A stretch of 64,000 nucleotides of DNA, taken from positions 352,001-416,000 of the forward strand of contig CAWGMQ010000011.1 in assembly GCA_963823665.1 (NCBI GenBank), written 5' to 3'. The stretch comes from an uncultured Planctomycetota bacterium (lineage in GTDB: Bacteria > Planctomycetota > Planctomycetia > Isosphaerales > Isosphaeraceae). Positions within the stretch are counted from its first letter, which is position 1. Each line of letters starts with the position of its first letter. Positions 9,021-36,544 of this stretch are shown here, one piece after another. The notes beneath the pieces are model-generated. The model had not been told where the DNA came from. It worked only from the letters and a program-made list of their open reading frames with translations, and did no database searches. Made by a program: the position numbers and the translations under genes.

Positions 9021-12000
9021 TCACGACATCACATGCCGCGGCTTGGGATCCTTGTAGCGCTCAAGCAGGCCGGGGTTGAGGCCATACCCCATCCCCAGCA
9101 GCTTGACCGGGTGCAGCGTGCGCTTGGAGGTTCCCTGTTCCATCTGGATCCGGCAGGCGCCGCATTCGGTGGCTCCGATGTCGATGTCGGGTTCGCGCAG
9201 CCGGGTCATGAGCCCTCTCCCGGCGCGGAGCGAGTTCCAGAAACGCTCGCGCGAGAGCCCGAACGTGCCTCCCATGCCCGAGCAGCCGCGGTTGATGAAC
9301 TCGACGTCGAGCGAGAGCACGTCGCGCAACAGCAGGAGCCCCGGTGTGCCGGCGCCCGTGGCGCGTAAGTGACACGGCTGATGATAGCCCACGCGGGCGT
9401 CGAGCCTCTGGGGCACCTTCGGAAGCTGGCCCCTGGCTTCCAGTCCAAGCAAATACTGCCCCACATCCATCGTGTTCGAGGCGACGAGCTCGGCGTCGAG
9501 GTCTTCCGTCAGCTTGACGTATTCTTGCTGAAGCATGAGCGCGGCCGTGGGCTCGGAGCAAATCACGGTGTAGCCGTCGCGCACTGCATTGGCGAGCAAC
9601 CGCAGGTTGGCCATGGCCGCCTCGCGTGCGTGGTCGATGTCGCCCACCAGGAGCGCGGCCATTCCCGAGCCGCGCTGCGCGCGGGCACGAACACGTTCAC
9701 TTCGGCGTGCCGCAGCACCTTCACGACCGAATCGGCCAGCTCCTGATCGTAATAATTGGCATACACGTCCACGAAATACACGACGCGCGGCCCGCTCAAC
9801 TGGGGCCGGGGTTTGTCGAGCCCGAGCCGCGCCGCTCGCCGGGTGAAGCTCGAGCGCGTCACCCTGGGCAGCACCCTGTGCCGCGAAACGCCCAGCATCC
9901 GCTCCAGCAGCCAGCGCGATGAGCGGCGGGCCAGGAGGAAGTTGGTGATGATCGGGAACCGGCTCGCCAGCCGCGCCCAGAACTCGGTGCGCGAGAAGAC
10001 CCAGTCGTGAGGCGGAAGCCCGTGCATCTCGACATAGGCTGCCTTGGCCTCGAGCATCAGGCTCGAGACGTCCACTGCCGACGGGCACTCACTGCGGCAG
10101 AGCTTGCAATGAATGCACAGGTCGGCGTGCGCCTTGAATTCGTCGGACCCCCATAGCCGCGGATCAAGCCGCCCGGTGGCGATCTCGCGCACCAGGTTTG
10201 CCTGCGACCGGGGCGAGGCCGCCTCGTGCCGCAGGGCGCGGAAGCTCGGGCACATCCGCGCGGTCGGCTCGAGCGAGCGGCAGGTGCCGCAGCCCTGGCA
10301 GTTGGCTGCCGTCTCGACGAGCGACAGCGCCGGCCAGCGCAGGGCCGGCTCGATCACCGGTTCATCCAGCGGCGCGCCGCCTTCGCCCGCGCCCGCCGCC
10401 GATGAGCTCTCTCCCGCGGCCGGCGTGCCGCGGCGAGCTCGACGCGAATCTCGCTGCTCGACCACGAGAGCGGCGTCTGCGGCTCGGCGATCGCCGGCGG
10501 CCGTGCCTGCGGCGCCGGCCAGGGCTTCAAGTCTCGGAGCAGAAGATGAGGATCATCGCCGATCACCTTGCCCGGATTGAGCTGGTCGAGTGGGTCGAAC
10601 GCATCCTTGATCTCGCGGAAGACCTGGGAGAGCTCACCGTACTGCTTGCGCAGAAACTGCGTGCGCGCCAGCCCGCATGCTTGCGCGCCGCTGATCGTGC
10701 CGCCGGCCTCGAGCACGATGTCGTAGACCGCCGTGGCCAGCGGCTCGAGCTTGGCCCGATCGCCGGGGTCGGAAAGATCCAGAAACGGCCGCAGCCGGAG
10801 CCGGCCGTCGCCGGCACAGGCGTCCAGCGTCCACGTGATATTCTGCTGCTGCAACAGGCCTTGAAGCCGCTGAAGCACGACGGCGAGCTGCTCCGGCGGC
10901 ACCGCGACGTCGTCGACGATCGAGACCGGCCGCGCCCGGCCCCGCGACCGCATGAGCAATGGCTCGACCAGTCTCCGCAGGCCCAGGAGGCGATTGCACT
11001 CCGCGGGCTCGAGGGCCCCGACGGGCTCCGAGACCAGCGTTCCAGTCCGCGCAGCGATCTCCCTGACCTGAGCCAGTCGTGCCGAGATCGTGGCCGGCTC
11101 GTCCCCCTCGAATTCCACCGTCAGGATCGCCTCGGCCGATTCGTCGATCCAGCCGCGCAAGAGCAGGTCGGCGTCGCGCGCCAGCGAGAGCGCTCGCCGG
11201 TCGAACAGGTCGCACGATGCAGGATCGAGCCCTCGCCTCAAGATCTGCTCGGCGAAGGCTGCGGCGTCGAGCAGCCCGGAAAACGCCAGGAGCACGACAC
11301 CTCGCGCGGCGGCAAGGGGAACCGTGCGCAGCACGGCTGCAAGCGTGACGGCCAGGGTCCCTTCCGAGCCGGCAAGCAGTCTGCCCAGGTGAATGCCCGT
11401 GTCGCTCGCCGCGCGATGAAGCGCGTAGCCGGCCCGGTTGCGCGCGCGCGAGCAGATCCTCGCCAGCCGGCTTTCACTATTGCGGAAGATCATCTGGAGC
11501 TTGCGAACCACCAGCTCCTTGAAATCGCCCGGATCCGAGTCGTAAGCCGGCCAGGGCTCGAAGCCCACGTCCGCGACCTCGCCCCGCGCAAAGACCACCC
11601 GCAGCCTGTCGACCTGATCGCCCGAGGAACCATGCTTGATCGACCGGGGCCCGGCCGCATCCACGGCGATCATGCCTCCCACCGTCATGACGTCCGAGTT
11701 GTGGGCGACCGGCTCGAGCCGCCGCCCGGTTCGCGCAAGCTGCGCATTGAGCGCGTCCAGCACGACGCCGGCCTCCACCACGACGTGGTCGCCCCCGATC
11801 GAGATCACCCGCCGAAAATGGCGGCTCAAATCGACGATCAGCCCGCGCCCGAGCGCGCCGCCGCCCGAGTCGGTGCCCGCCCCTCGCACATGGACGGCGA
11901 TCCGGTTCTCGGCCGCATACCGCACGACGTTCACCACGTCGTGCTCGCTGCGCGGCAGGACAACTCCCAGCGGATCGATCTCGTAAAGGCTCGAGTCGAT

Positions 12001-12105
12001 CGCGTAAGGAGCCCGGTCCAGGGGCTCGAAGTAAAGCTCCCCCTCGACCAGTCCCCGCAAATCGTCATAGATCCGCGCACGCGGTTCGTCCACGGCGGCA
12101 ATCAT
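9021..12105 (-). CDS. FAD-binding / Fe-S oxidoreductase (GlcD-GlcF type fusion); frameshifts at ~10470 and ~9690
   Basis: RGAGTDSGG FAD motif, GSEGTL, LNPGKV, two ferredoxin motifs (CQGCGTC, CIHCKLC..CP) and a CCG-like C-terminus (HQPCH, CSGMGG, ECGAC) spread over three ORFs. Confidence 0.9.
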
Positions 12106-15935: not shown

Positions 15936-15967
15936 GAACGTCGTTGGCCGCGCGGCCAACGACGTTC
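15936..15967. terminator. Perfect 32-bp palindrome between convergent genes
   Basis: gaacgtcgttggccgc|gcggccaacgacgttc. Confidence 0.6.
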
Positions 15968-16006
15968 AAGAGTCGCCTTTTGCTCCGCGAAAGTGCGTTC
16001 TATTGC

Positions 16007-16592
16007 TCAGCCCCGCGACCCAAAAATCAGCGACATGAGCTCAGATCGTGTCGCGGGTTTTTCGCGGAACGCCCCGCGCATCGCGCTGGTCACAAACGTG
16101 CTATCCGGCTTCGAGACCCCGCGAATTGTCATGCAACTGTGGCTGGCCTCGATCACCACGGCGACTCCGCGTGCATCGAGCTCGCGCATCAACAGGTCCG
16201 CGAGCTTCCTCGGTCAATCGCTCCTGCATTTGCGGGCGCCTCGCCAGCACGTCCACGACTCGCGGGATTTTCGAGAGCCCGATCAGCTTACCGTTGGGGA
16301 TGTAGGCCACGTGTGCCTTGCCGACCACCGGCAGCAGGTGGTGCTCGCAAAAACTTACGAGCCGGATGTCCTTCACCAGCAGGATCTCATCATATTTCTG
16401 CGTGAACAGCTTCTTGAGATGCCCGCGCGGATCGCGATGAAGCCCGTCGAAGACCTCGGCATACATCCGCGCGACCCGATCCGGCGTCTCCCGCAGACCC
16501 TCGCGCTCGGGGTCTTCGCCCACCGCCAGCAAGATTTCCCGCACCGCGCGGCGAATGCGGTCCAGATCCATCGACTGCTCTTTCCCAGCCAA
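16007..16592 (-). CDS. folE: GTP cyclohydrolase I; frameshift at ~16205
   Basis: [34 protein letters not shown], continuing in another frame as [20 protein letters not shown]. Confidence 0.95.
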
Positions 16593-17272: not shown

Positions 17273-18877
17273 CTAACGGGCCTTTTCCAGCGTCAGAAAC
17301 GCAACCCGCTCATTCGCGAAATCCAGAACCACGCGGAACGGCTTGAGGAAGTCGACCCCGATGTTTCCGTCGAGGTATTCGTCGCCGAAGATGCCCGTCT
17401 TGTCCGTTGCGAAGACCACCGCGGGGTTTTTGAACCGGTGGCCCGCCAGCTCGAACCAGGCAATCGTGCCCGTCGCGGTATCGCTCGACCCGATCATCCC
17501 CGTGCCGAGCTTCCGGCCTCGGAGGAGACGCTTTTCCTGCACGGTCTGCGCGTGGAACACAACGTTGCCCACGCCCCGGGGCCCGCTGGCGCCTAAGTCT
17601 AGTCTGAAGAGGCCCTTCTTGTTGCCCTCAAAGGTTGCCGAGATGACCGGCGCCGTTTGATGAAAGATCAGCGGCTTCCAGGACGGCGATTCAAGGTGGT
17701 GGCTCTTCGGGTCGTACAACTTGACCGACTCGTCATCGAGCGCGATCTCGGCCACACACCGCGCCAGCACATCGTAGCCGGCGATTCCGACGACGTCCTT
17801 CCCCATCGCATTCTGGATGTTGACCATGTTCATCGTCACGAATAACGGCCGTTCGGTCGTCATCGGCCCGAGCGTGAGCGACCTGGCCCGGAAGATCGAG
17901 CTTGGCTCGTTGCCCATGACGCTCGTGACGATTGACGAGCCCAACCGCTCGAGCTTCAAGTTCGCGGCGACCGAGGCATCGATCACATTGCTGCCCGCGC
18001 ATGTGTCAAAAATGAACCACCCGGTCTCCTGGCCGTCGATTCTGGGCCGGACCAGAATGTGGCCCGTCATGGCGCGTTTGACGGACAGGCCGGAACGCGC
18101 GGCTGCGTCGAATCGCGTGTCATCGGGGCGGGCCGCCATATCGTAAACGCTTGCCTGCGCGGTTGGCGCGGGGCGAATCGACCCGACGCGGTAGATCTCC
18201 GTGTCTCCCGCCAGCGTCACCGTCACCGTTCCCGGCACCTTCAGGCCACCGAAGTCGCGGTAATCGGCGAACGCCCAGGTCTCCGCGCCCGAGATGCTCC
18301 CGCAATTCAAAGACTTCGGCAGCCACGTTTCGCGCGAAACGCGAAGCTCGACCTTGAACCGGCCTTGCTTGACGTCGATCGCCATCTCGTCACGACTGGG
18401 TCTCACCCTGGAGGACGCGAGCGCCTCACCATCGGCGCGTGCGAGCCACTGGCCGGTTTGCAACTCGACCAGGAGGCGGTTTCGATCGAGGTCGCGGAGC
18501 TGGAGCCGCATTGGCATGTTACTCAGATCGGTCGACCAGCACTCCTTACCGTTGAATCCTACTTTGCTCGGCAGCGGCCCTTCGACGCTCTGAAGGAACA
18601 TCCCCGCGGATGCGAACCGCAGCGAATAATCAGACGTCAACCCGTTGCGCTGCACCTTCCCCTCGATCAGGATCTCCGCCGGCCGGCCCGCAGGCTTGGC
18701 CGTACCTGCCGCCGTGCGCATTTTTTCAAGGATCGCCGCGGCGCCCTCGGCCTTGCCCTTCGCCTTGACCTGAGCACGAGCCGGAGGCTCGAAGGCGAGA
18801 CACGTCACGATGACGGAAACACCGGCGGCCGACACGACGCAACCGCGGAACGCCGGACACCGATCGCGCGATAGCAT
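17273..18877 (-). CDS. Secreted retropepsin-like aspartyl protease (two protease domains)
   Basis: Signal ending PARA; FIFDTCAG and FRLDLGAS catalytic-type motifs; GIAGYDVL and GNIGVDFL. Confidence 0.85.
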   Translation of the reverse strand: MLSRDRCPAFRGCVVSAAGVSVIVTCLAFEPPARAQVKAKGKAEGAAAILEKMRTAAGTAKPAGRPAEILIEGKVQRNGLTSDYSLRFASAGMFLQSVEGPLPSKVGFNGKECWSTDLSNMPMRLQLRDLDRNRLLVELQTGQWLARADGEALASSRVRPSRDEMAIDVKQGRFKVELRVSRETWLPKSLNCGSISGAETWAFADYRDFGGLKVPGTVTVTLAGDTEIYRVGSIRPAPTAQASVYDMAARPDDTRFDAAARSGLSVKRAMTGHILVRPRIDGQETGWFIFDTCAGSNVIDASVAANLKLERLGSSIVTSVMGNEPSSIFRARSLTLGPMTTERPLFVTMNMVNIQNAMGKDVVGIAGYDVLARCVAEIALDDESVKLYDPKSHHLESPSWKPLIFHQTAPVISATFEGNKKGLFRLDLGASGPRGVGNVVFHAQTVQEKRLLRGRKLGTGMIGSSDTATGTIAWFELAGHRFKNPAVVFATDKTGIFGDEYLDGNIGVDFLKPFRVVLDFANERVAFLTLEKAR

Positions 18878-19011: not shown

Positions 19012-21128
19012 CTATCGAGTCGATCTGCGGACACAAGAGCCTCGCCGCACTGGTGCACCGCGCCGCTCGAACAGCAACTTCGCCAGACTCGAGCCTCCGG
19101 CGAAACCACGGCCTCCTGTTAACAATGCCATGTGGACGGCGGCCCAGGTTTCCTCGGGTGCCTCGGGAATCGGACCAGACTGGATTGCAGGCCATTGTCC
19201 TTCGCGGGTGTAAAAGGCGTCGGCCCATCCCAGCACTTGCTCCTCCCTGAGCGGCGGATGGCGCACCATGCCGCGCTCGCGAGAAAGTAGGCGGTAGAGC
19301 GACAACTCTCCCTGCCGCACGCCGCCGGCTTTTCTCTTCAGGAAGTTATCCACGTTGAACCAGTACACACCGCCGGAATCGCTGATCAGGCCGGACGCGG
19401 AAGTTGGCCAGCGACCTGTCCGCGTGTGATGAGCATCGGCCCACGCCAGCACCTGCGGAATCGTCAGCTCCGGCACGCGCGACGAAGATCGTTTTCCCTT
19501 CCGCTCGGCGAGCAAACGAGCCAGCGACGATCCGCCCGGCAGGTCGCGCCTGCCCTGTCGAAGCGCCGCGTCGACGTGCACCCAGGTCTCGCCCGTGGCC
19601 TCCGGAATCTCACCCGACCCGCAACCGGGCCATCGCCCTTCGCGGGCGTGAAAGGCGTCGGCCCACGCCAGGATCTCTGAAACGATCAAATTGGCGCAGC
19701 CACTTCAGGGCGTTTGCGCCGGCCGATGCCAAAGAGCTTCACGAGCGACGAACCCCCTGGCAGGCCGCGGACGCTGTGATCCAGTGCGTATTGTATTTGC
19801 CTCCAGGTGTCGCCGGGAGACTCCGGAATCGCCCCGGAGCTCACGTTCGGCCACTTGCCCGTTCGCGCCCGATGAGCCTGGGCCCAGGCCACAATACCCT
19901 GGATCGTCAACGGTGCGGCCTCCTTATGTTGGGGCTCGTCGCGATCTCGCTGCAGAAGCTGGGGTATCGTCGTACCGCCCGGCAGACCGTGCGCGCCGGA
20001 TTGCACGGCGCGACTCACCGCCTGCCACGTCTCGCCGGGAGCCTCGGGAATGCGTCCCGAGTCGGCGCTCGGCCACCGGCCGTGGCGGGCGCGATGTGCG
20101 TCTGCCCAGCGCAGGATGTCGGGGATCACGAGCGGTGGCCGATGTCCCTTGCTGTACACGCCTCGCTCCTCGGCCCAAAGGCGGACGAGGGATGATCCGG
20201 GACCAACTCCTCGACATCCGGCGACGAGCGACGCATGGATGCCGCGCCAGGTCTCGCCCGGTGCTTCGGCGATCGGACCGGAGTCGACCGTCGGCCATCG
20301 ACCCGTCCGCGCGTGATGAGCATCGGCCCATCGCAGAACTCGAGGCATCGCAAGCGGTGGCAGGTGCCCCATGCTTCTCGCTTCGCGGCGCTCGACGAGC
20401 AGCCGGGCGAGCGACGAGCCTCCGGGAAGCCCGCGGTAGCCGCCTTCAAGCGCGTTATTGAGCGCGATCCAGCTCTCGTCGGGCGTCTCGATGATTGGAC
20501 CGGACGTGACACTCGGCCATCGCCCGGTTCGCGCGTGATGGGCGTCGGCCCATTCGAGAATCTGTTCCTCGGAAAGCCGCGTATGACGAAAAACCCCGCG
20601 CTCCTCGGCCAGCAGCCGGGCGAGCGTCGATCCGCCGGGCAGCCCTCCTCGCCCAAGCTTGAGTGCGTCGTTCAGTGCAAGCCATGTGACGCCGCCGCCA
20701 CCGGGAACCGGGCCCGATGTGCCCGTCGGCCACTCCTCCTTCACCGCATGCCACTCATCAGCCCACGCCAGGATCTGCTCCAGGCTGAAATCTGGTTCTT
20801 GCAGGTGATAACGCCCTCGGTGCTCGGAAAAGAAGCGGGCAAGCGTGCCGCCAAAGGCGAAGCCGCGGCGCCCGAAGCTTAACGCAGCTTCAATCAATAA
20901 CCAAGTCTCGCCAGGGGCCTCTGGGATGGGCCCCGCTCCTGGAGTAGGCCAGTCACCTGAGCGTGCGAAGAAGGCGTCTGCCCAGCAAAGGACCTCGTTC
21001 TCATCGAGGTCAGGCGGCACGCCACGCGCCGCTTCATCTTCCGCCAGGGCGGCCCGGAGCACGCCGAACCAGCGCCTGGCGTCTCTTCCAGCTTTCATCC
21101 ACGTCACGCCGGCGCTTTGCCCGCCCAT
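19012..21128 (-). CDS. Protein of nine ~73-aa tandem repeats (ILAWADAHxARTGRWP..GETW..AL..GxRGLPGGSSLARLL); frameshift at ~19690
   Basis: ORFs 19686-21128 (6 repeats) and 19012-19689 (3 repeats) join at a repeat boundary if one base is added (GCG CCA AT TTG ATC). Confidence 0.85.
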
Positions 21129-21475
21129 TGCCCGCTAAGAAAGGTCGATTGGGGTTCTTTTGAGTGTACATAGATAAGACCGCTATGCATTGTCGCGTTC
21201 CGCGCTGCGCGGCTCGGCCGACGATCGGCATTCTTAAGTATCGGCACGAGCTGTGTCGTGCCATAAATAGCGTTTTCTTTTGCCGCGACCGCACTCGATG
21301 GAGTCGCGGAACGCGTCCTGGTCGTCCGGGCGTGCGTCAACAGGATGAAGTGCAACTCGATCCCGCTTGTTCAAGAAATGTTTGACGCCGTGTTCTGCGG
21401 CCGGGGATAATTCGTGACGAGCCCACCACAGCGAGACCACCGTTGTGCGAGGCGTACGGCGGGCGAGACGAGCGG

Positions 21476-24370
21476 ATGAACGTCGAATTGATGATCGTGG
21501 CGGCGGCGGTTGGGCTTGTGCAGAGTGGCACAATCGCTTCGCCGGTCGACTATGCCCGCGAAATCAAGCCGATGCTGGCTGCCAGGTGCACGAGCTGCCA
21601 CGGGGCAGTTCGTCAGAACGCGGGTCTACGCCTGGATACGGCCGAGCTCGCCCGACGAGGCGGCAAAGGCGGGCCGGGCTTCGTGCCGGGTAAGAGCGGG
21701 GAGAGCCTGATCATTCTCCGCGTGACCGGTTCCGACGGCTTGGACCGCATGCCTCCCGAGAACGAGGGGGTTGGCCTGAGCGAACGTGAAATCGCCCTGC
21801 TCCGCTCGTGGATCGACCAGGGCGCGAAGGCGCCGCCGGAGCCGACGCCCGTCGACCCCCGCAAGCACTGGGCGTACCAGCCACCCGCTCGCGCGACGCC
21901 TCTCCGTCCGGCGGACGGAAACCGGGCCCAGAATCCGATCGATACCTTTCTCGCCGCCGGCTACCAGGCACGCGGGTTGCGGTCGAGCCCGCCTGCGCGC
22001 AAGGATCTCTGGCTCAGGCGCCTTTACCTCGATTTGATCGGATTGCCGCCGACCCAAGAAGCACTCCAGGCTTTTCTGGCTGATTGCTCGTCCGATGCGC
22101 AGACCAGGGTCGTCGACCGCCTTCTTGCCGACCCTCGCCACGGCCAGCGCTGGGGTCGGCACTGGATGGACGTCTGGCGGTACAGCGACTGGTACGGGCT
22201 CGGAGACGAGATTCGGTACAGCCATCCTCATATCTGGCGATGGCGTGATTGGATCGTCGCGGCCCTCAATGGCAATAAGGGTTACGACCGGATGATCGAG
22301 GAGATGCTGGCTGGCGACGAGCTCGCCCCCGACGACCCGGCCACGGTTGGTGCGACCGGCTACCTCGTGCGGAACTGGGACATCTTTAACCGGAACGCCT
22401 GGCTGGCAAGCACCGTCGAGCACACCGCGCGTGCCTTCCTCGGCGTGACGATCCAGTGCGCCCGCTGCCACGACCACAAGTATGACCCGATCTCGCAGGC
22501 GGACTACTACCGCTTCCGAGCTTTCTTCGAGCCGTACCACATTCGCATCGATCGTGTTCCGGGTGAGCCCGACCGCACCAAGGCCGGCCTTTCGCGAGCG
22601 TTTGACGACTTCCTCGACACCCCCACGCATCTCTTCGTCCGCGGCGATGAGGCCGCTCCCGACAAGACCCGGGCGCTCCGTCCCGCAACCCCGCAGGTCC
22701 TGGGCGGCGAGCTCAAGATCGTGCCTGTTCTGCTCTCAACCAGCGTCACCTGCCCCGACAAGCGCGATTTCGTCGTGCGTGAAGCGACCGACGCCGCAGA
22801 AAAGGCCGTAGCCCAGGCCCGCGCACTTGCCGCCGCAGCCCGAAGCCGCGCGGAGCTTGCGGCGCGGGCGGCCAACGCGGCCATCGCAGCCGATAAGATG
22901 GCAGATACGAAGTTGAATGCCGCTGCGGGCACACCCGAGGCGCTGAAAACCGCCCAGGCCGCGGCCGCCGGGCAGATCGAGGCGCTCGCGACCGCGCAGC
23001 GGGCGGCCCGGATCGCCCGGGAAGACCGGGAGGTCGCGGAGAAGGCCGTGGCTGCGGCCGAAGCCAAACAATCCGCTTTAAGAGCGGTCTTGTACGCCGA
23101 GTGGCTTGAAGACCGGGGAGCCCGGCGCAGCGGCTCCGAGGCCTGGACTGCCGCGGCCCGCACGGCGCTGGCCGCCCAGCGCCGACTCGCGCAGGTTGAA
23201 GCTTCCTTCAAGGGCCTCGCCGCCTCGAGAGACCTCGAGCGTGCCCGGCAGGGTCTCGACGGCCTGCTCGCCGCCGGCGCAGGGCAGAAAGGCGACCCGC
23301 TCAAGGACGCCCGGGCGAAGGCCGCGGCCGCGGTCGTCGAGGCGCGCGGCCGATTTGCCGCGGCGGACCGGGAATCTGCCCTGGCGCAGGCGGCCGCGAA
23401 GGCACCGCTCACCACCGAGTACACGCCGCGCCCGCTCGAATTCCCGCGCGCCAAGACGACCTATCGCGACACACCGAGCAACGCGCCTTACAAGAATGTG
23501 AGCACCGGCCGGCGGCTTGCGCTGGCTCGGTGGATCGTCGACCGCCGGAACCCCTTGACGGCCCGGGTTGCCGTGAATCACGTCTGGGCTCGCCATTTCG
23601 GCGAGCCGCTGGTCGATTCCATGTACGACTTCGGCCTCCGGTCGCCGCGGCCTCTCCATCACGCGCTCCTGGACTGGCTGGCAGTCGAATTCATGGAGAA
23701 CGGCTGGAGCTTCAAGCACCTGCACCGGCTCATCCTCACTTCGCAGGCGTACCGGATGCGCAGCTCCGATTCCGGCGCCGGCGATCCCAACGTCGCCCTT
23801 GACCCCGACAACCGGTACTTCTGGCGAATGAATGTTCAGCGGATGGAGGGCGAGGTCGTTCGCGACAGCGTGCTTTGCCTGGCCGGCCGCCTCGACACCC
23901 GGATCGGCGGGCCCGAGGCGCCGGTGGCCGCCGCCGAGGCAGGCACCCGCCGGACCATCTACTACCGCTATGCCAGCGGCGATAACGTTCCGCTACTCAG
24001 TATGTTCGACGCCGCGAACGTGACGGAATGCTACCGCCGGTACGAGACAATCGTGCCGCAGCAGGCGCTGGCGCTCTCGAACAGCGCGATGGTCTTGACC
24101 GGCGCGGGCGAGATCGCGGCGGCAACGACGCGCGAGGTCGGCGCGGGCGCCTCCGCGCGAGCTTCGTTCGTGGACTCAGCGTTCGTGCGCATTCTCGGTC
24201 GGAGCCCGAGCGCCGCCGAGCAAGCGGAAGCCTGCGCAGGTCTCGCGCGGCTGGCCGAGGCGTTTGAGTCGGAGCCGAAGCAAAACCACGGTCCGGCGCC
24301 GGAGGCCCGCGCTCGCGCAGCGCTCGTGCACGTACTCTTGAATCATAACGATTTTGTCACGATCCGATGA
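21476..24370 (+). CDS. PSD1 and planctomycete cytochrome c domain protein (PSCyt1/DUF1549/DUF1553)
   Basis: CTSCH heme motif, HWAYQP, RRLYLDLIGLPP, RHWMDVWRY, QCARCHDHKYDPI, NPLTARVAVN, PQQALAL. Confidence 0.95.
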   Translation: MNVELMIVAAAVGLVQSGTIASPVDYAREIKPMLAARCTSCHGAVRQNAGLRLDTAELARRGGKGGPGFVPGKSGESLIILRVTGSDGLDRMPPENEGVGLSEREIALLRSWIDQGAKAPPEPTPVDPRKHWAYQPPARATPLRPADGNRAQNPIDTFLAAGYQARGLRSSPPARKDLWLRRLYLDLIGLPPTQEALQAFLADCSSDAQTRVVDRLLADPRHGQRWGRHWMDVWRYSDWYGLGDEIRYSHPHIWRWRDWIVAALNGNKGYDRMIEEMLAGDELAPDDPATVGATGYLVRNWDIFNRNAWLASTVEHTARAFLGVTIQCARCHDHKYDPISQADYYRFRAFFEPYHIRIDRVPGEPDRTKAGLSRAFDDFLDTPTHLFVRGDEAAPDKTRALRPATPQVLGGELKIVPVLLSTSVTCPDKRDFVVREATDAAEKAVAQARALAAAARSRAELAARAANAAIAADKMADTKLNAAAGTPEALKTAQAAAAGQIEALATAQRAARIAREDREVAEKAVAAAEAKQSALRAVLYAEWLEDRGARRSGSEAWTAAARTALAAQRRLAQVEASFKGLAASRDLERARQGLDGLLAAGAGQKGDPLKDARAKAAAAVVEARGRFAAADRESALAQAAAKAPLTTEYTPRPLEFPRAKTTYRDTPSNAPYKNVSTGRRLALARWIVDRRNPLTARVAVNHVWARHFGEPLVDSMYDFGLRSPRPLHHALLDWLAVEFMENGWSFKHLHRLILTSQAYRMRSSDSGAGDPNVALDPDNRYFWRMNVQRMEGEVVRDSVLCLAGRLDTRIGGPEAPVAAAEAGTRRTIYYRYASGDNVPLLSMFDAANVTECYRRYETIVPQQALALSNSAMVLTGAGEIAAATTREVGAGASARASFVDSAFVRILGRSPSAAEQAEACAGLARLAEAFESEPKQNHGPAPEARARAALVHVLLNHNDFVTIR

Positions 24371-25864
24371 ATCGAGCCATTGCCATGAACGAGCACCAAA
24401 CCGACCGCGCCTGTTGCAAGCGCACGCGGCGGGTTTTCCTGGCCGATGCCGGAATGGGGTTCGTGGGCCTGGCGCTGGGCGCGATGCTCCACCGAGACGG
24501 CGCGGCTGCTGCGCAGAGCCAGGAGAGCTGGGTGCCGCCCAGCGGAAAGCCGCATTTCCCGCCGCGAGCGAATCGTGTGATCTGGCTGATGATGCGCGGC
24601 GGTGTGAGCCACCTCGAGAGCTTCGACCCCAAGCCGGAACTGACCAGGCACGCCGGCAAGACGATCAGTGATAGCCCCCACAACGCGGCAGTCTTCGGCT
24701 CGCCTTTTCTCAAGAACGTGCGCGAGCAAGTTGCGAACAACATCATCGACAAGACGAAGGCGACGATCTACCCCACCCAGATCGGCTTCAAGAGAGGGGG
24801 CCAAAGTGGGATCGAGGTGAGCGACTGGTGGCCGAACGTGCGAGGCTGCGTCGACGATATCGCGGTGATTCGCTCGATGTTCACGACCGACAACAATCAC
24901 GGTGCGCAGCTTGAGTTCTTCACCGGCCGCCATTTGCTCGACGGCTGCCATCCGACGATCGGTGCGTGGGTTCATTACGGGCTGGGCTCGCTCTGCGATG
25001 ACCTGCCGCAATTCATCTCGATGGGCCCGCCGCTGGAATACCAGTGCTCAGGAGCCACCGACGCCAATTATCTGGGCCCGGAAAACGCGGGCGTGACCCT
25101 CAAAGTCGACCCAGCCGATCCCCTGCCCTTCGCCCGGCCCGGTTTGCCGCTGGGACAGACAGAACCGGCGCTCAAGGCCGAGCTGCTCGGGCGGCTCAAC
25201 CGGCTCGCGGCACTCGAGTATCCATCGGACGAGAAGCTCCGCGCCCGGATCAAATCGTACGAGCTGGCCTTCCGCATGCAAACGGCCGTGCCCGAAGTTC
25301 TGAGGTTCGCGGAGGAAGACAGATCGACCTCGGCCCTCTACGGCCTCGACCAGGACGTTACCCGGCCTTTTGGCCAGCAGTTGCTGGCGGCCCGGCGGTT
25401 CGCGGAGCGCGGGGTGCGCTTCATTCAGGTGTTTCACGGCGAGGGCGCCGCCGGCGCGTGGGACGCTCACTCGGGCCTCCGCGCCAATCACTCGAGCCTC
25501 TGTGCCCAGGTCGACAAGCCGATTGCGGGCCTTCTGACCGACTTGAAGCGGCGGGGGATGCTTGACGACACGGTCGTCGTCTGGACCACGGAATTCGGCC
25601 GTACCCCCTGCGCAAGGCGCTGACGGCCGCGACCACCACAACTACGGCTTCTCAATCTGGATGGCCGGCGGCGGCGTGCGCGGGGGGATCGTTCACGGCG
25701 CGACCGACGAGATCGGCTTCCACGCCGTGGAGCACCGCCATTACGTCACCGACATTCACGCCACGATTCTTCACCTGCTGGGGCTCGACTCGCACCGCCT
25801 GGAAATCCCCGGCCGGAAGCGACTGGCGGTCGAGCATGGATCGCCGATCCCGGAAATCCTTTGA
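24367..25864 (+). CDS. DUF1501 domain protein; frameshift at ~25615
   Basis: Tat-like [30 protein letters not shown], continuing as [20 protein letters not shown]. Confidence 0.93.
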
Positions 25865-26632: not shown

Positions 26633-28342
26633 ATGAGTTTGCCACGGAAGCGGTCCAGCCGTTCCGAGCGAAGTCGGATCAAGCGCCGGCTCTTGTGCAT
26701 GCCCGATACCCTGGAGAGCCGCTGGGTGCTCCAGGCTGGGATTCCGAATTACCAGTCCCCGTGGATACCCTCGGACCTGCTGGTCACCAATCCGATCACC
26801 AAGGAGCGGGAGATCTTCGAGGCGTCCGAGCAGGTCAACCCTAATAACTTCAACAGCGAGGGGTTTACCAACCAAGGCAAGGTTGTCTCGGGCACCGACC
26901 GGGCGGGCGACAAGTGGGTGATCACGGTGCACGGGCCGGGCTACGTGATTGTCACCGACACCACGCCGAATGACGGCGTACTCGACGATGACATCAACAC
27001 GATCCAGCTCGTCAATACGAGCCCGAAGAAGACTTACGTTACCGGCAACGTGATCCCGTCGAATACCGTGCAGACCAATGGCGACGTCCTGTTCAATCAG
27101 CTCACGGCGGTCTCGGGCGTCAAGTCGATCGAGCTGAACGGCTTTGACCTCTCGGGTGCGGTGACCCCGCCCGTCAGCACGCCGTATGGCGTCTTCCTGT
27201 ACGGCGGAGTGGGTACTCTCTCGTTCAACAGCATCGATGCGCAGATCGACACCTCCGTGAACACCGCGCCGTACCAGGTAGTGATTGGCACGGCGAACAC
27301 GCCGCTCAAGCAGATGCCGTCGATCTACATCAACAACATCACCAACCTGGTCTTCGACAGCGAGTCGACGACCATTCCAGAGACGCCGGTCACCACGCCC
27401 ACTGTGGATTTCACGATCAACGGTGTCGTCCGCAACTTCGATATCGTCTCGACCACGCAGGGGTCGGTACCGGCAGGGTTCCAGTTCGAGTTCCCGCAAG
27501 TGGGCACGACAGGTCGCACAGCGCTCCAGGCGACGGCCGTGAAGACCTTGACCGTGCATGGCTCCGCCAAGAACTTCACGGTATCACGCGCACCGGTGCC
27601 GTTCTCGTCGGAATCCAGCGGTGTCGGTTACTTGAAGAAGGCCTATTTCGGCGGCAACGCCGACGCGGTGGGGCTGGACGTCAAGGGCAAGATCGGCAAG
27701 CTCACCTTCAAGAAGGGACTGGGCAACCCCGCCGGCGTCTTTACGGCGGTGTCTTCATCATCTGGTCTGAACCTGCCATCGACGCTGTACGGAACGCCTC
27801 CGGGTTCGACCGGGTATCCCGCGGCCGGCCTCTCGGGCGGCACGGTCCGGGCCAGCAGCATCGGCAAGCTCACGGTCGGGGCGTCGAACGTGTTCGTCGA
27901 GACCGCAACGAATCCGGATTTCGTGCAGCTCGGCATTCAAGGGTATCCGACATATGCGGTCTTGCCGGGCTACAACCTGACGAACGCGACCATCTTCACA
28001 TCGGGCTCGATCGGCACCGTGAACGTGCAGGGCACGCAGCTTAACAGCGAGGTGAAGACCGGCTTCGACTACACGGCGTATGTTCAGGGCCTCGAGGGAA
28101 CGCGCAGCGCCAGCAACATCAAGCTTTACCACCAGCGTGGCGACCTGGTCAACAGCGATGTCTCGGCGAGCGTCCGCCCCGCCAACAATCATTACAACAA
28201 GGCAACCAACACGAACGGTCCGGGCTCGATCACGACCAAGCGCGCCGGCCGCAATTACGACACCGGCGGCGTGACCGGCCTGGGCAACACCGGCGCCGGC
28301 ATCTTCGCCCGCACCATCAAACGGCTGCGGGTCAAGGGCTGA
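26633..28342 (+). CDS. Extracellular beta-rich hypothetical protein with Planctomycete LExR-type leader
   Basis: Basic N-terminus then DTLESRWVL; T/S/G/N/V-rich; 569 aa. Confidence 0.8.
   Translation: MSLPRKRSSRSERSRIKRRLLCMPDTLESRWVLQAGIPNYQSPWIPSDLLVTNPITKEREIFEASEQVNPNNFNSEGFTNQGKVVSGTDRAGDKWVITVHGPGYVIVTDTTPNDGVLDDDINTIQLVNTSPKKTYVTGNVIPSNTVQTNGDVLFNQLTAVSGVKSIELNGFDLSGAVTPPVSTPYGVFLYGGVGTLSFNSIDAQIDTSVNTAPYQVVIGTANTPLKQMPSIYINNITNLVFDSESTTIPETPVTTPTVDFTINGVVRNFDIVSTTQGSVPAGFQFEFPQVGTTGRTALQATAVKTLTVHGSAKNFTVSRAPVPFSSESSGVGYLKKAYFGGNADAVGLDVKGKIGKLTFKKGLGNPAGVFTAVSSSSGLNLPSTLYGTPPGSTGYPAAGLSGGTVRASSIGKLTVGASNVFVETATNPDFVQLGIQGYPTYAVLPGYNLTNATIFTSGSIGTVNVQGTQLNSEVKTGFDYTAYVQGLEGTRSASNIKLYHQRGDLVNSDVSASVRPANNHYNKATNTNGPGSITTKRAGRNYDTGGVTGLGNTGAGIFARTIKRLRVKG

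Positions 28343-29395: not shown

Positions 29396-36544
<7,149 letters not shown>

Follow-up and report, generated by a model that had tools for sequence, protein, structure and literature searches.

What does a protein do that is made of little else than copies of a single module? The question is raised by a soil planctomycete gene that encodes nine copies of a ~73-residue module with no enzyme domain attached. It lies in a stretch of 64,000 nucleotides (hereafter, the window) from an uncultured member of the Isosphaeraceae (GenBank assembly GCA_963823665.1, contig CAWGMQ010000011.1, positions 352,001 to 416,000). A preliminary description had proposed a nucleic-acid reader with a variable helix on a fixed scaffold. 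Our data lend this idea indirect support, through fusions of the repeat to nuclease-motors, a helix-turn-helix (HTH)-like model of the unit, and covariation and fast evolution on one helix face, but they leave a sequence code hypothetical. In our reading, to which we assign a probability of roughly 55%, the protein would be a sequence-preferring DNA-binding array with helix 2 in the groove, present here in a stand-alone, capped form.

A repeat family joined to nuclease-motors

The repeat is a real family and, as far as we searched, an uncatalogued one. No named family for it was found in Pfam, NCBIfam, PADLOC, or PHROGs, a PDB sequence search with the repeat protein gave no match, and the literature yielded no description, with subscription papers and supplements lying outside that search; within these sources, the earlier view that it belongs to no characterised family was borne out. 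PHROGs returned one short match of 22 residues, to a family of unknown function, and the ESM Atlas feature search returned only unnamed planctomycete clusters and no named match. Weak Pfam matches in relatives (FlhC, HetR_C, Phage_TAC_18, pyrophosphatase, and others) were rejected, as their scores were summed over many short stretches.

Among 8,000 scored candidates, we identified 3,424 homologous proteins, which form 2,864 clusters at 50% identity. The survey of copy number and fusions that had been suggested revealed 1 to 16 units per protein among those examined, as well as fusions to the Mrr nuclease and to SF2 motors. Fifteen of 16 named genome loci belong to Planctomycetota and one to an unassigned bacterium, and two motor fusions are labelled Verrucomicrobia or Limisphaerales. 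The family is present in 5 of 41 relatives (genome G000 counted) and in 5 of 401 genomes of the phylum (one of them borderline; scoring was limited to 3 candidates in each genome). G000 contains 19 matches over 8 places; no helicase was found at the seven other places, either in the reading frames or in the flanking open reading frames (ORFs) scanned (79 of 124 called ORFs over 19 loci), and two of the seven are syntenic with genome G001. In G001, a stand-alone array (L085:4908-9030) is followed immediately by an N6-methylase gene and has an integrase-core gene as a neighbour. P0011, used as a query, had no counterpart among 72,556 plasmids and 50,697 phages. IMG/VR yielded 3 loci with the repeat, and on one of its contigs (L030:5977-7098) a five-unit array runs in the opposite direction to the adjoining terminase-large-subunit and DNA-methylase genes.

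Of the 120 listed homologues above 840 aa in length, 81 show helicase motifs ahead of a C-terminal array, 38 of them together with an Mrr-like domain, and 2 have Mrr alone with the array; these counts come from sequence patterns, and 26 selected proteins were checked against Pfam. The Mrr-motor core matches only the N-terminal ~650 positions of the PADLOC Type IIG/I REase-MTase (restriction endonuclease-methyltransferase) models (E = 2e-141 to 7e-152): the fusions cover profile positions 7-653 of 1646 and continue as repeats to the C terminus. The LlaGI catalytic pattern (E23, D56, D60, Q74, and K76; residues as given in an excerpt of PMC2790908) is invariant in 21 of 21 aligned fusions. According to an excerpt of PMC4872093, the region of Type ISP enzymes beyond the coupler is a target-binding MTase-TRD (target recognition domain). 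Our fusions share with the Type ISP enzymes LlaGI and LlaBIII the Mrr nuclease, the SF2 ATPase, the coupler half, and the catalytic pattern, whereas they carry the repeat array in place of the MTase and TRD. A tandem C-terminal array on Mrr/SF2 helicases is a property of the family, while the window protein stands alone, with neither nuclease nor motor. At several loci, integrases, a relaxase, and transposases occur among the scanned neighbours of the Mrr fusions, and no consistent DNA methylase partner was seen in two scans (the second covering 77 of 108 called ORFs).

The same motors can carry other tails. Among the best 120 motors from a core-only search, 71 carry HA (helicase-associated, PF03457) units, 47 carry this repeat, 1 carries PF14882, and 1 is a cut-short protein; none carries both HA and this repeat. 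We built a FastTree phylogeny of 150 cores, namely, the best 120 and 30 added repeat-bearing ones, with a midpoint root and no root test. On this tree, the tail label changes 5 times, whereas shuffled labels required at least 43 changes. Clades with HA tails lie around a clade of 51 repeat-bearing members; a single repeat protein pairs with an HA protein as its sister, and the repeat clade has the PF14882 protein within it. Given this mixed placement, the motor tail has been exchanged several times.

At least two further distant SF2 clades, the P0141 and P0344 types, bear the repeat. P0141-type proteins (for example, L037:3-3731, L043, and L046) combine the same terminal array with a distinct SF2 ATPase of ~595 aa without a nuclease, and no PADLOC or NCBIfam model matched this ATPase. 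In P0097, P0147, P0174, P0306, and P0339, the Mrr nuclease is joined directly to the array without a motor, which is a minimal nuclease-plus-reader architecture; several of these proteins have altered catalytic motifs. P0213, P0310, and P0321 carry a second, N-terminal Trp-rich repeat region of ~180-220 aa ahead of the array, for which no Pfam, NCBIfam, or PHROGs family was found.

HA arrays, which occur on Mrr-ResIII-Helicase_C proteins, TtrA, and some TniQ, resemble the repeat family in standing in tandem behind the same motor family, although the two are mutually exclusive, and in being Trp-rich with three helices (predicted in our family). They also occur among the ESM Atlas structural neighbours of the repeat, below the naming bar. 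HA is cited as DNA-binding in an excerpt of PMC12191111 and described as tandem and possibly DNA-binding in part of the text of bioRxiv 10.1101/2024.11.13.623437. However, HA units measure ~63-68 aa as opposed to 73-74 aa here and their motifs differ, hmmscan found no PF03457 match in repeat proteins, and an hhalign comparison with 146 HA units gave a probability of 0.6%, inside the shuffled range (up to 4.6%). A solved HA chain is absent from the listed structure rows, an absence to which we give no weight. The homing endonuclease associated repeat PF18780 likewise forms tandem arrays and has a first helix ending in a G-x-x-P turn; its clusters make up 4 of 10 ESM Atlas structure rows for the repeat (TM 0.31-0.42, all below the bar), and both have the DsrC-family chain 2xsj_C as a weak structural neighbour. 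Yet PF18780 has 54 positions instead of 73, its second helix corresponds to a loop in our repeat, it gave no Pfam match to the repeat and none in G000, and hhalign returned 2.6% in another register, within the shuffled range, from a thin profile of 25 sequences. The loose kinship with these two repeats suggested earlier is therefore undetectable by profile comparison.

Predicted fold and variation along helix 2

The fold prediction reached a pLDDT (predicted local distance difference test) of 90.8. In the prediction, each unit consists of three helices with an HTH-like layout, and the variable helix 2 takes the position of HTH helix 3. In the structure rows listed for one unit, ~42 of 50 are DNA-binding regulators, sigma factors, or nucleases; model residues 1-58 align with Thermus aquaticus sigma-A 274-328, and helix 2 falls on the third helix of sigma-3. 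In the proposed structure search, Foldseek found no match in PDB at E ≤ 0.001. Its viral library returned A0A8S5S295 (E = 3e-4, 10% identity, root-mean-square deviation of 12.9) and weak giant-virus helicase rows, and an hhalign comparison with a sigma-3 profile, thin at 7 sequences, remained within shuffled controls.

Variation is partly code-like within 33 related motor fusions, which supplied 224 units. In this set, the scaffold is nearly fixed, and entropy peaks at positions 37, 40, 41, 44, 45, and 47, at 23-24, and in the linker. Covariation is strongest for the linker pair 69-70, followed by 37-41, 37-44, 40-44, and 23-40. Recurrence of six-residue words between proteins was observed for 6 of 213 (0.5 expected; a maximum of 3 in 300 shuffles), and 4 of these 6 words sit at different array positions. 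The arrays also turn over quickly: behind motors that are 90-100% identical, they are 62% identical in register and differ in unit number in 64% of 56 pairs, and behind motors 87-92% identical they have no register and differ in length. With the exception of one near-identical locus pair, the closest units sit in the same array, which suggests renewal by internal duplication.

For the helix-2 face, the ratio of nonsynonymous to synonymous substitution rates (dN/dS) comes to 1.0 (0.7-1.46 over 200 random splits; 7-13 pairs), compared with 0.52 in helix 1, 0.41 in helix 3, and 0.14 in the scaffold. This face is the highest class in 90% of splits, at a value close to, and not clearly above, 1. 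An apparent signal of positive selection (dN/dS up to 2.0), which came from biased binning, fell to ~1.0 once binning and estimation used separate codons. In stand-alone orthologues, by contrast, dN/dS is 0.31 at positions 37, 38, 40, and 41 and 0.31-0.44 over the helix-2 residues (7 unit pairs), and the triplet after Trp-Pro is freer (0.68). Residues that have diverged between units and are kept between orthologues behave as expected of specificity residues. Across the family as a whole, positions 38 and 41 are only slightly better retained than others when related arrays are compared.

A DNA-binding array and its alternatives

In the proposed mechanism, successive units would lay their variable second helix along a DNA duplex. 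The exposed helix-2 residues 37, 38, 40, 41, 44, and 45, together with the loop after Trp-Pro, would form a contact patch that gives each unit a short sequence preference, and, with unit 1 as a cap, about eight units would together cover a long site. Where the array is fused to a motor, it would serve to load the nuclease-motor at the target, whereas the window copy, enzyme-free at a fixed chromosomal place, would be a dedicated site-binding protein with a regulatory or DNA-organising role.

Several observations weigh against this reading. Across 3,034 family units, positions 37, 41, 44, 45, 47, and 22-24 show 3.3-3.9 bits of entropy, but the ordinary surface positions 19, 29, and 69-71 show equally 3.3-3.9 bits; family-wide, variation is not code-like, as helix-2 entropy is that of other surface columns. 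The window units have a net charge of only +1.0, and their helix-2 face is more hydrophobic than that of motor-linked units. The five residues described earlier as hypervariable hold up to the extent that variation is concentrated on helix 2 in the close clade, while family-wide they are no more variable than the rest of the surface, and one of them, position 39, is a buried I/V.

The best-surviving alternative, which we regard as possible but rather unlikely, is nucleic-acid binding without sequence reading, be it of any duplex, of DNA shape or an end, of RNA, or of modified bases. Here, the conserved Trp/Arg/Gly scaffold would bind while the variable helix drifts, and in motor fusions the array would be a processivity clamp or a modification sensor. 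Such drift is difficult to reconcile with helix-2 positions that covary with one another and with loop position 23, with words that recur more often than expected, with other exposed helices that are less variable, and with stand-alone orthologues that keep their helix-2 residues unit by unit.

It is slightly less likely still that the family constitutes a new class of natural, modular DNA readers, in which a unit reads a few bases through a transferable helix-2 code and units could be recombined to set specificity. On this bold version, arrays of 2-16 units would be rebuilt by duplication and exchange, so as to redirect a nuclease-motor that lacks a methylase towards long foreign sites; the stand-alone arrays would be domesticated readers. 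The programmable array envisaged in the preliminary description stays hypothetical: covariation and turnover would be compatible with a residue code, but dN/dS is close to 1, words rarely recur, and the window array is stable across relatives. TALE, C2H2 zinc-finger, and PPR arrays do share with our family a fixed scaffold, a small set of variable and covarying residues in each unit, and renewal of the arrays by internal duplication. They show no sequence or fold match to the repeat, whose units are 45% identical rather than near-identical and have 6-9 variable positions rather than two. TALE repeats are near-identical hairpins of 33-35 aa with a two-residue RVD (repeat-variable diresidue), as opposed to 71-74 aa here, and PF03377 (TALE) gave only a sub-threshold match in one relative. 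By inference from analogy, a zinc-finger-like helix-in-groove array may be the closer parallel. A TALE-inspired screen covered, in the portion available of PMC5472282, only repeats of 30-43 aa.

More doubtful is a protein-binding sensor or scaffold, ankyrin- or LRR (leucine-rich repeat)-like, with the variable helix as a paratope that recognises, for example, phage proteins and thereby activates the nuclease-motor, or binds a host partner in the stand-alone form. A variable face on a fixed scaffold with fast turnover is also typical of protein-binding repeats, the helix-2 face in the window has more large hydrophobics on nearly neutral units, and HTH-like three-helix bundles bind proteins too (the Vps25, Prp40 FF, and DsrC structure rows). 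On the other hand, the same slot is filled by HA or PF14882 repeats in sister proteins and by the DNA-reading unit in Type ISP enzymes, the majority of units in the family are basic (+3.1 to +4.3 per unit where the array is fused to Mrr or makes up the whole protein), and their variable face is made of N, Q, R, D, H, and S.

The gene in the window

Nine units run on the minus strand from 21008 to 19015, and all nine helix-2 pentapeptides and nine post-Trp-Pro triplets of the preliminary description were found again. The first Trp recurs at spacings of 73, 71, 74, 74, and 74 in the first ORF and 74 and 72 in the second, and the DNA-level period is 213-222 nt. Pairwise unit identity averages 45% (range 34-56%), with W, A, W-P, G, and W as invariant columns, and a six-frame search of the 64-kb window found no such motif outside the array. 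The features, all on the minus strand, are as follows:

21078..21171, minus: likely true N terminus, a basic leader from the ATG at 21171 (P0003/P0005 matches)
21076..21079, minus: first frame break, one base, between leader and cap helix (P0003 and P0005 read through in one frame)
21009..21077, minus: conserved cap helix of the stand-alone subfamily (leader pattern in 26 proteins; modelled helix 6-35)
20790..21008, minus: unit 1, helix-2 word LLIEA
20577..20789, minus: unit 2, LALND
20355..20576, minus: unit 3, IALNN; modelled alone
20133..20354, minus: unit 4, RGIHA
19911..20132, minus: unit 5, QAVSR
19689..19910, minus: unit 6, RQIQY; ends at the second break
19686..19695, minus: second frame break, one base, in the linker of units 6 and 7 (P0003, P0004, and P0005 continuous here)
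19468..19689, minus: unit 7, VHVDA
19252..19467, minus: unit 8, FNVDN; loop after helix 2 divergent
19012..19251, minus: unit 9, AAVHM, plus basic tail and stop codon

The cap helix that precedes unit 1 is common to 26 proteins by pattern (25 homologues and P0001) and probably packs on unit 1. Since the first helix-2 word is hydrophobic and similar throughout this leader subfamily, unit 1 is likely a cap and not a reader.

Instead of a single ORF, the assembly shows two, 21128-19686 (480 aa, 6 units) and 19689-19012 (225 aa, 3 units), and there is a further break at ~21077. Indeed, tblastn with P0003 (87%), P0004, and P0005 revealed frame switches at ~21077 and ~19690; these three proteins are unbroken, with nine units each in 1:1 register at 71-91% identity. 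P0003 residues 3-92 match 21354-21076 in the leader frame, and P0005 starts at a Met equivalent to the ATG at 21171. The leader from that ATG is in frame with units 7-9 and out of frame with units 1-6, so that the 40-aa leader noted earlier does precede the units but its first ~17 residues are out of frame. The interval 21171-19012 spans exactly 720 codons, and the repeat spacing over 19690 is 221 rather than 222. Short-read contigs from X1-X5 agree letter for letter with parts of the gene, and neither 21077 nor 19690 is bridged by any of them.

Both breaks are likely assembly errors, with a true product of ~719 aa from the ATG at 21171, because the relatives are continuous and other genes in the window are broken alike: folE (15950-16592, minus; Pfam 1-118 of 179, the rest in another frame), the DUF1501 gene (24367-25864, plus; 1-303, then 304-390), and the FAD-oxidase/Fe-S gene (9021-12105, minus). 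For the same reasons, programmed frameshifting was set aside. Given the many one-base breaks in this assembly, split genes here need caution. The syntenic orthologous arrays L078:4861-6263 (G000) and L089:4778-6303 (G001) are both broken in unit 2, ~20 nt apart, likely through independent errors, a real break common to both being the less likely reading. That the window copy is instead a decaying relic whose motor gene has been lost, so that both frameshifts are genuine and the array no longer functions, seems improbable: two unbridged breaks within 2.2 kb, broken paralogues in G000 and G001 (including this orthologous pair), and the patchy distribution would fit it, but array loci are split in 5 of 5 cases in one series of large-contig assemblies versus 1 of 11 other genome loci, neither ORF has an in-frame stop within a unit, scaffold dN/dS is 0.16 between syntenic paralogue pairs, and P0003, P0004, and P0005 are intact.

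No operon or defence-island context was seen for the window copy. Downstream of the array lies a 534-aa protein with aspartyl-protease domains (17273-18877, minus) and upstream a divergent PSCyt1/DUF1549/DUF1553 gene (21443-24370, plus); there is no sign of a shared operon with either flank, and the only promoter-like site faces the other gene. Farther along, the 569-aa product of 26633-28342 (plus) begins with a signal-like motif of planctomycete type and matched nothing in Pfam at E ≤ 1e-4, and 29396-33352 (plus) encodes a 1318-aa protein with many near-identical ~92-aa repeats, which presumably resembles the N terminus of a poly-HAMP histidine kinase.

To our knowledge, few natural tandem readers with a residue code exist (TALE, zinc finger, PPR, and PUF), and thousands of natural variants are available in this uncatalogued family. 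Its fusion forms come with a built-in read-out: as the array is attached to a nuclease-motor whose catalytic pattern is intact, cleavage or binding could be mapped where arrays vary and their motors are almost the same. Comparison would likewise make it possible to test what HA-type arrays do on these helicases, a long-open question. Should binding prove non-specific, the repeat would still be a new domain family of moderate interest. To judge by the window copy, very large planctomycete genomes have domesticated the module, which forms there a chromosomal protein in several copies, capped and without an enzyme.
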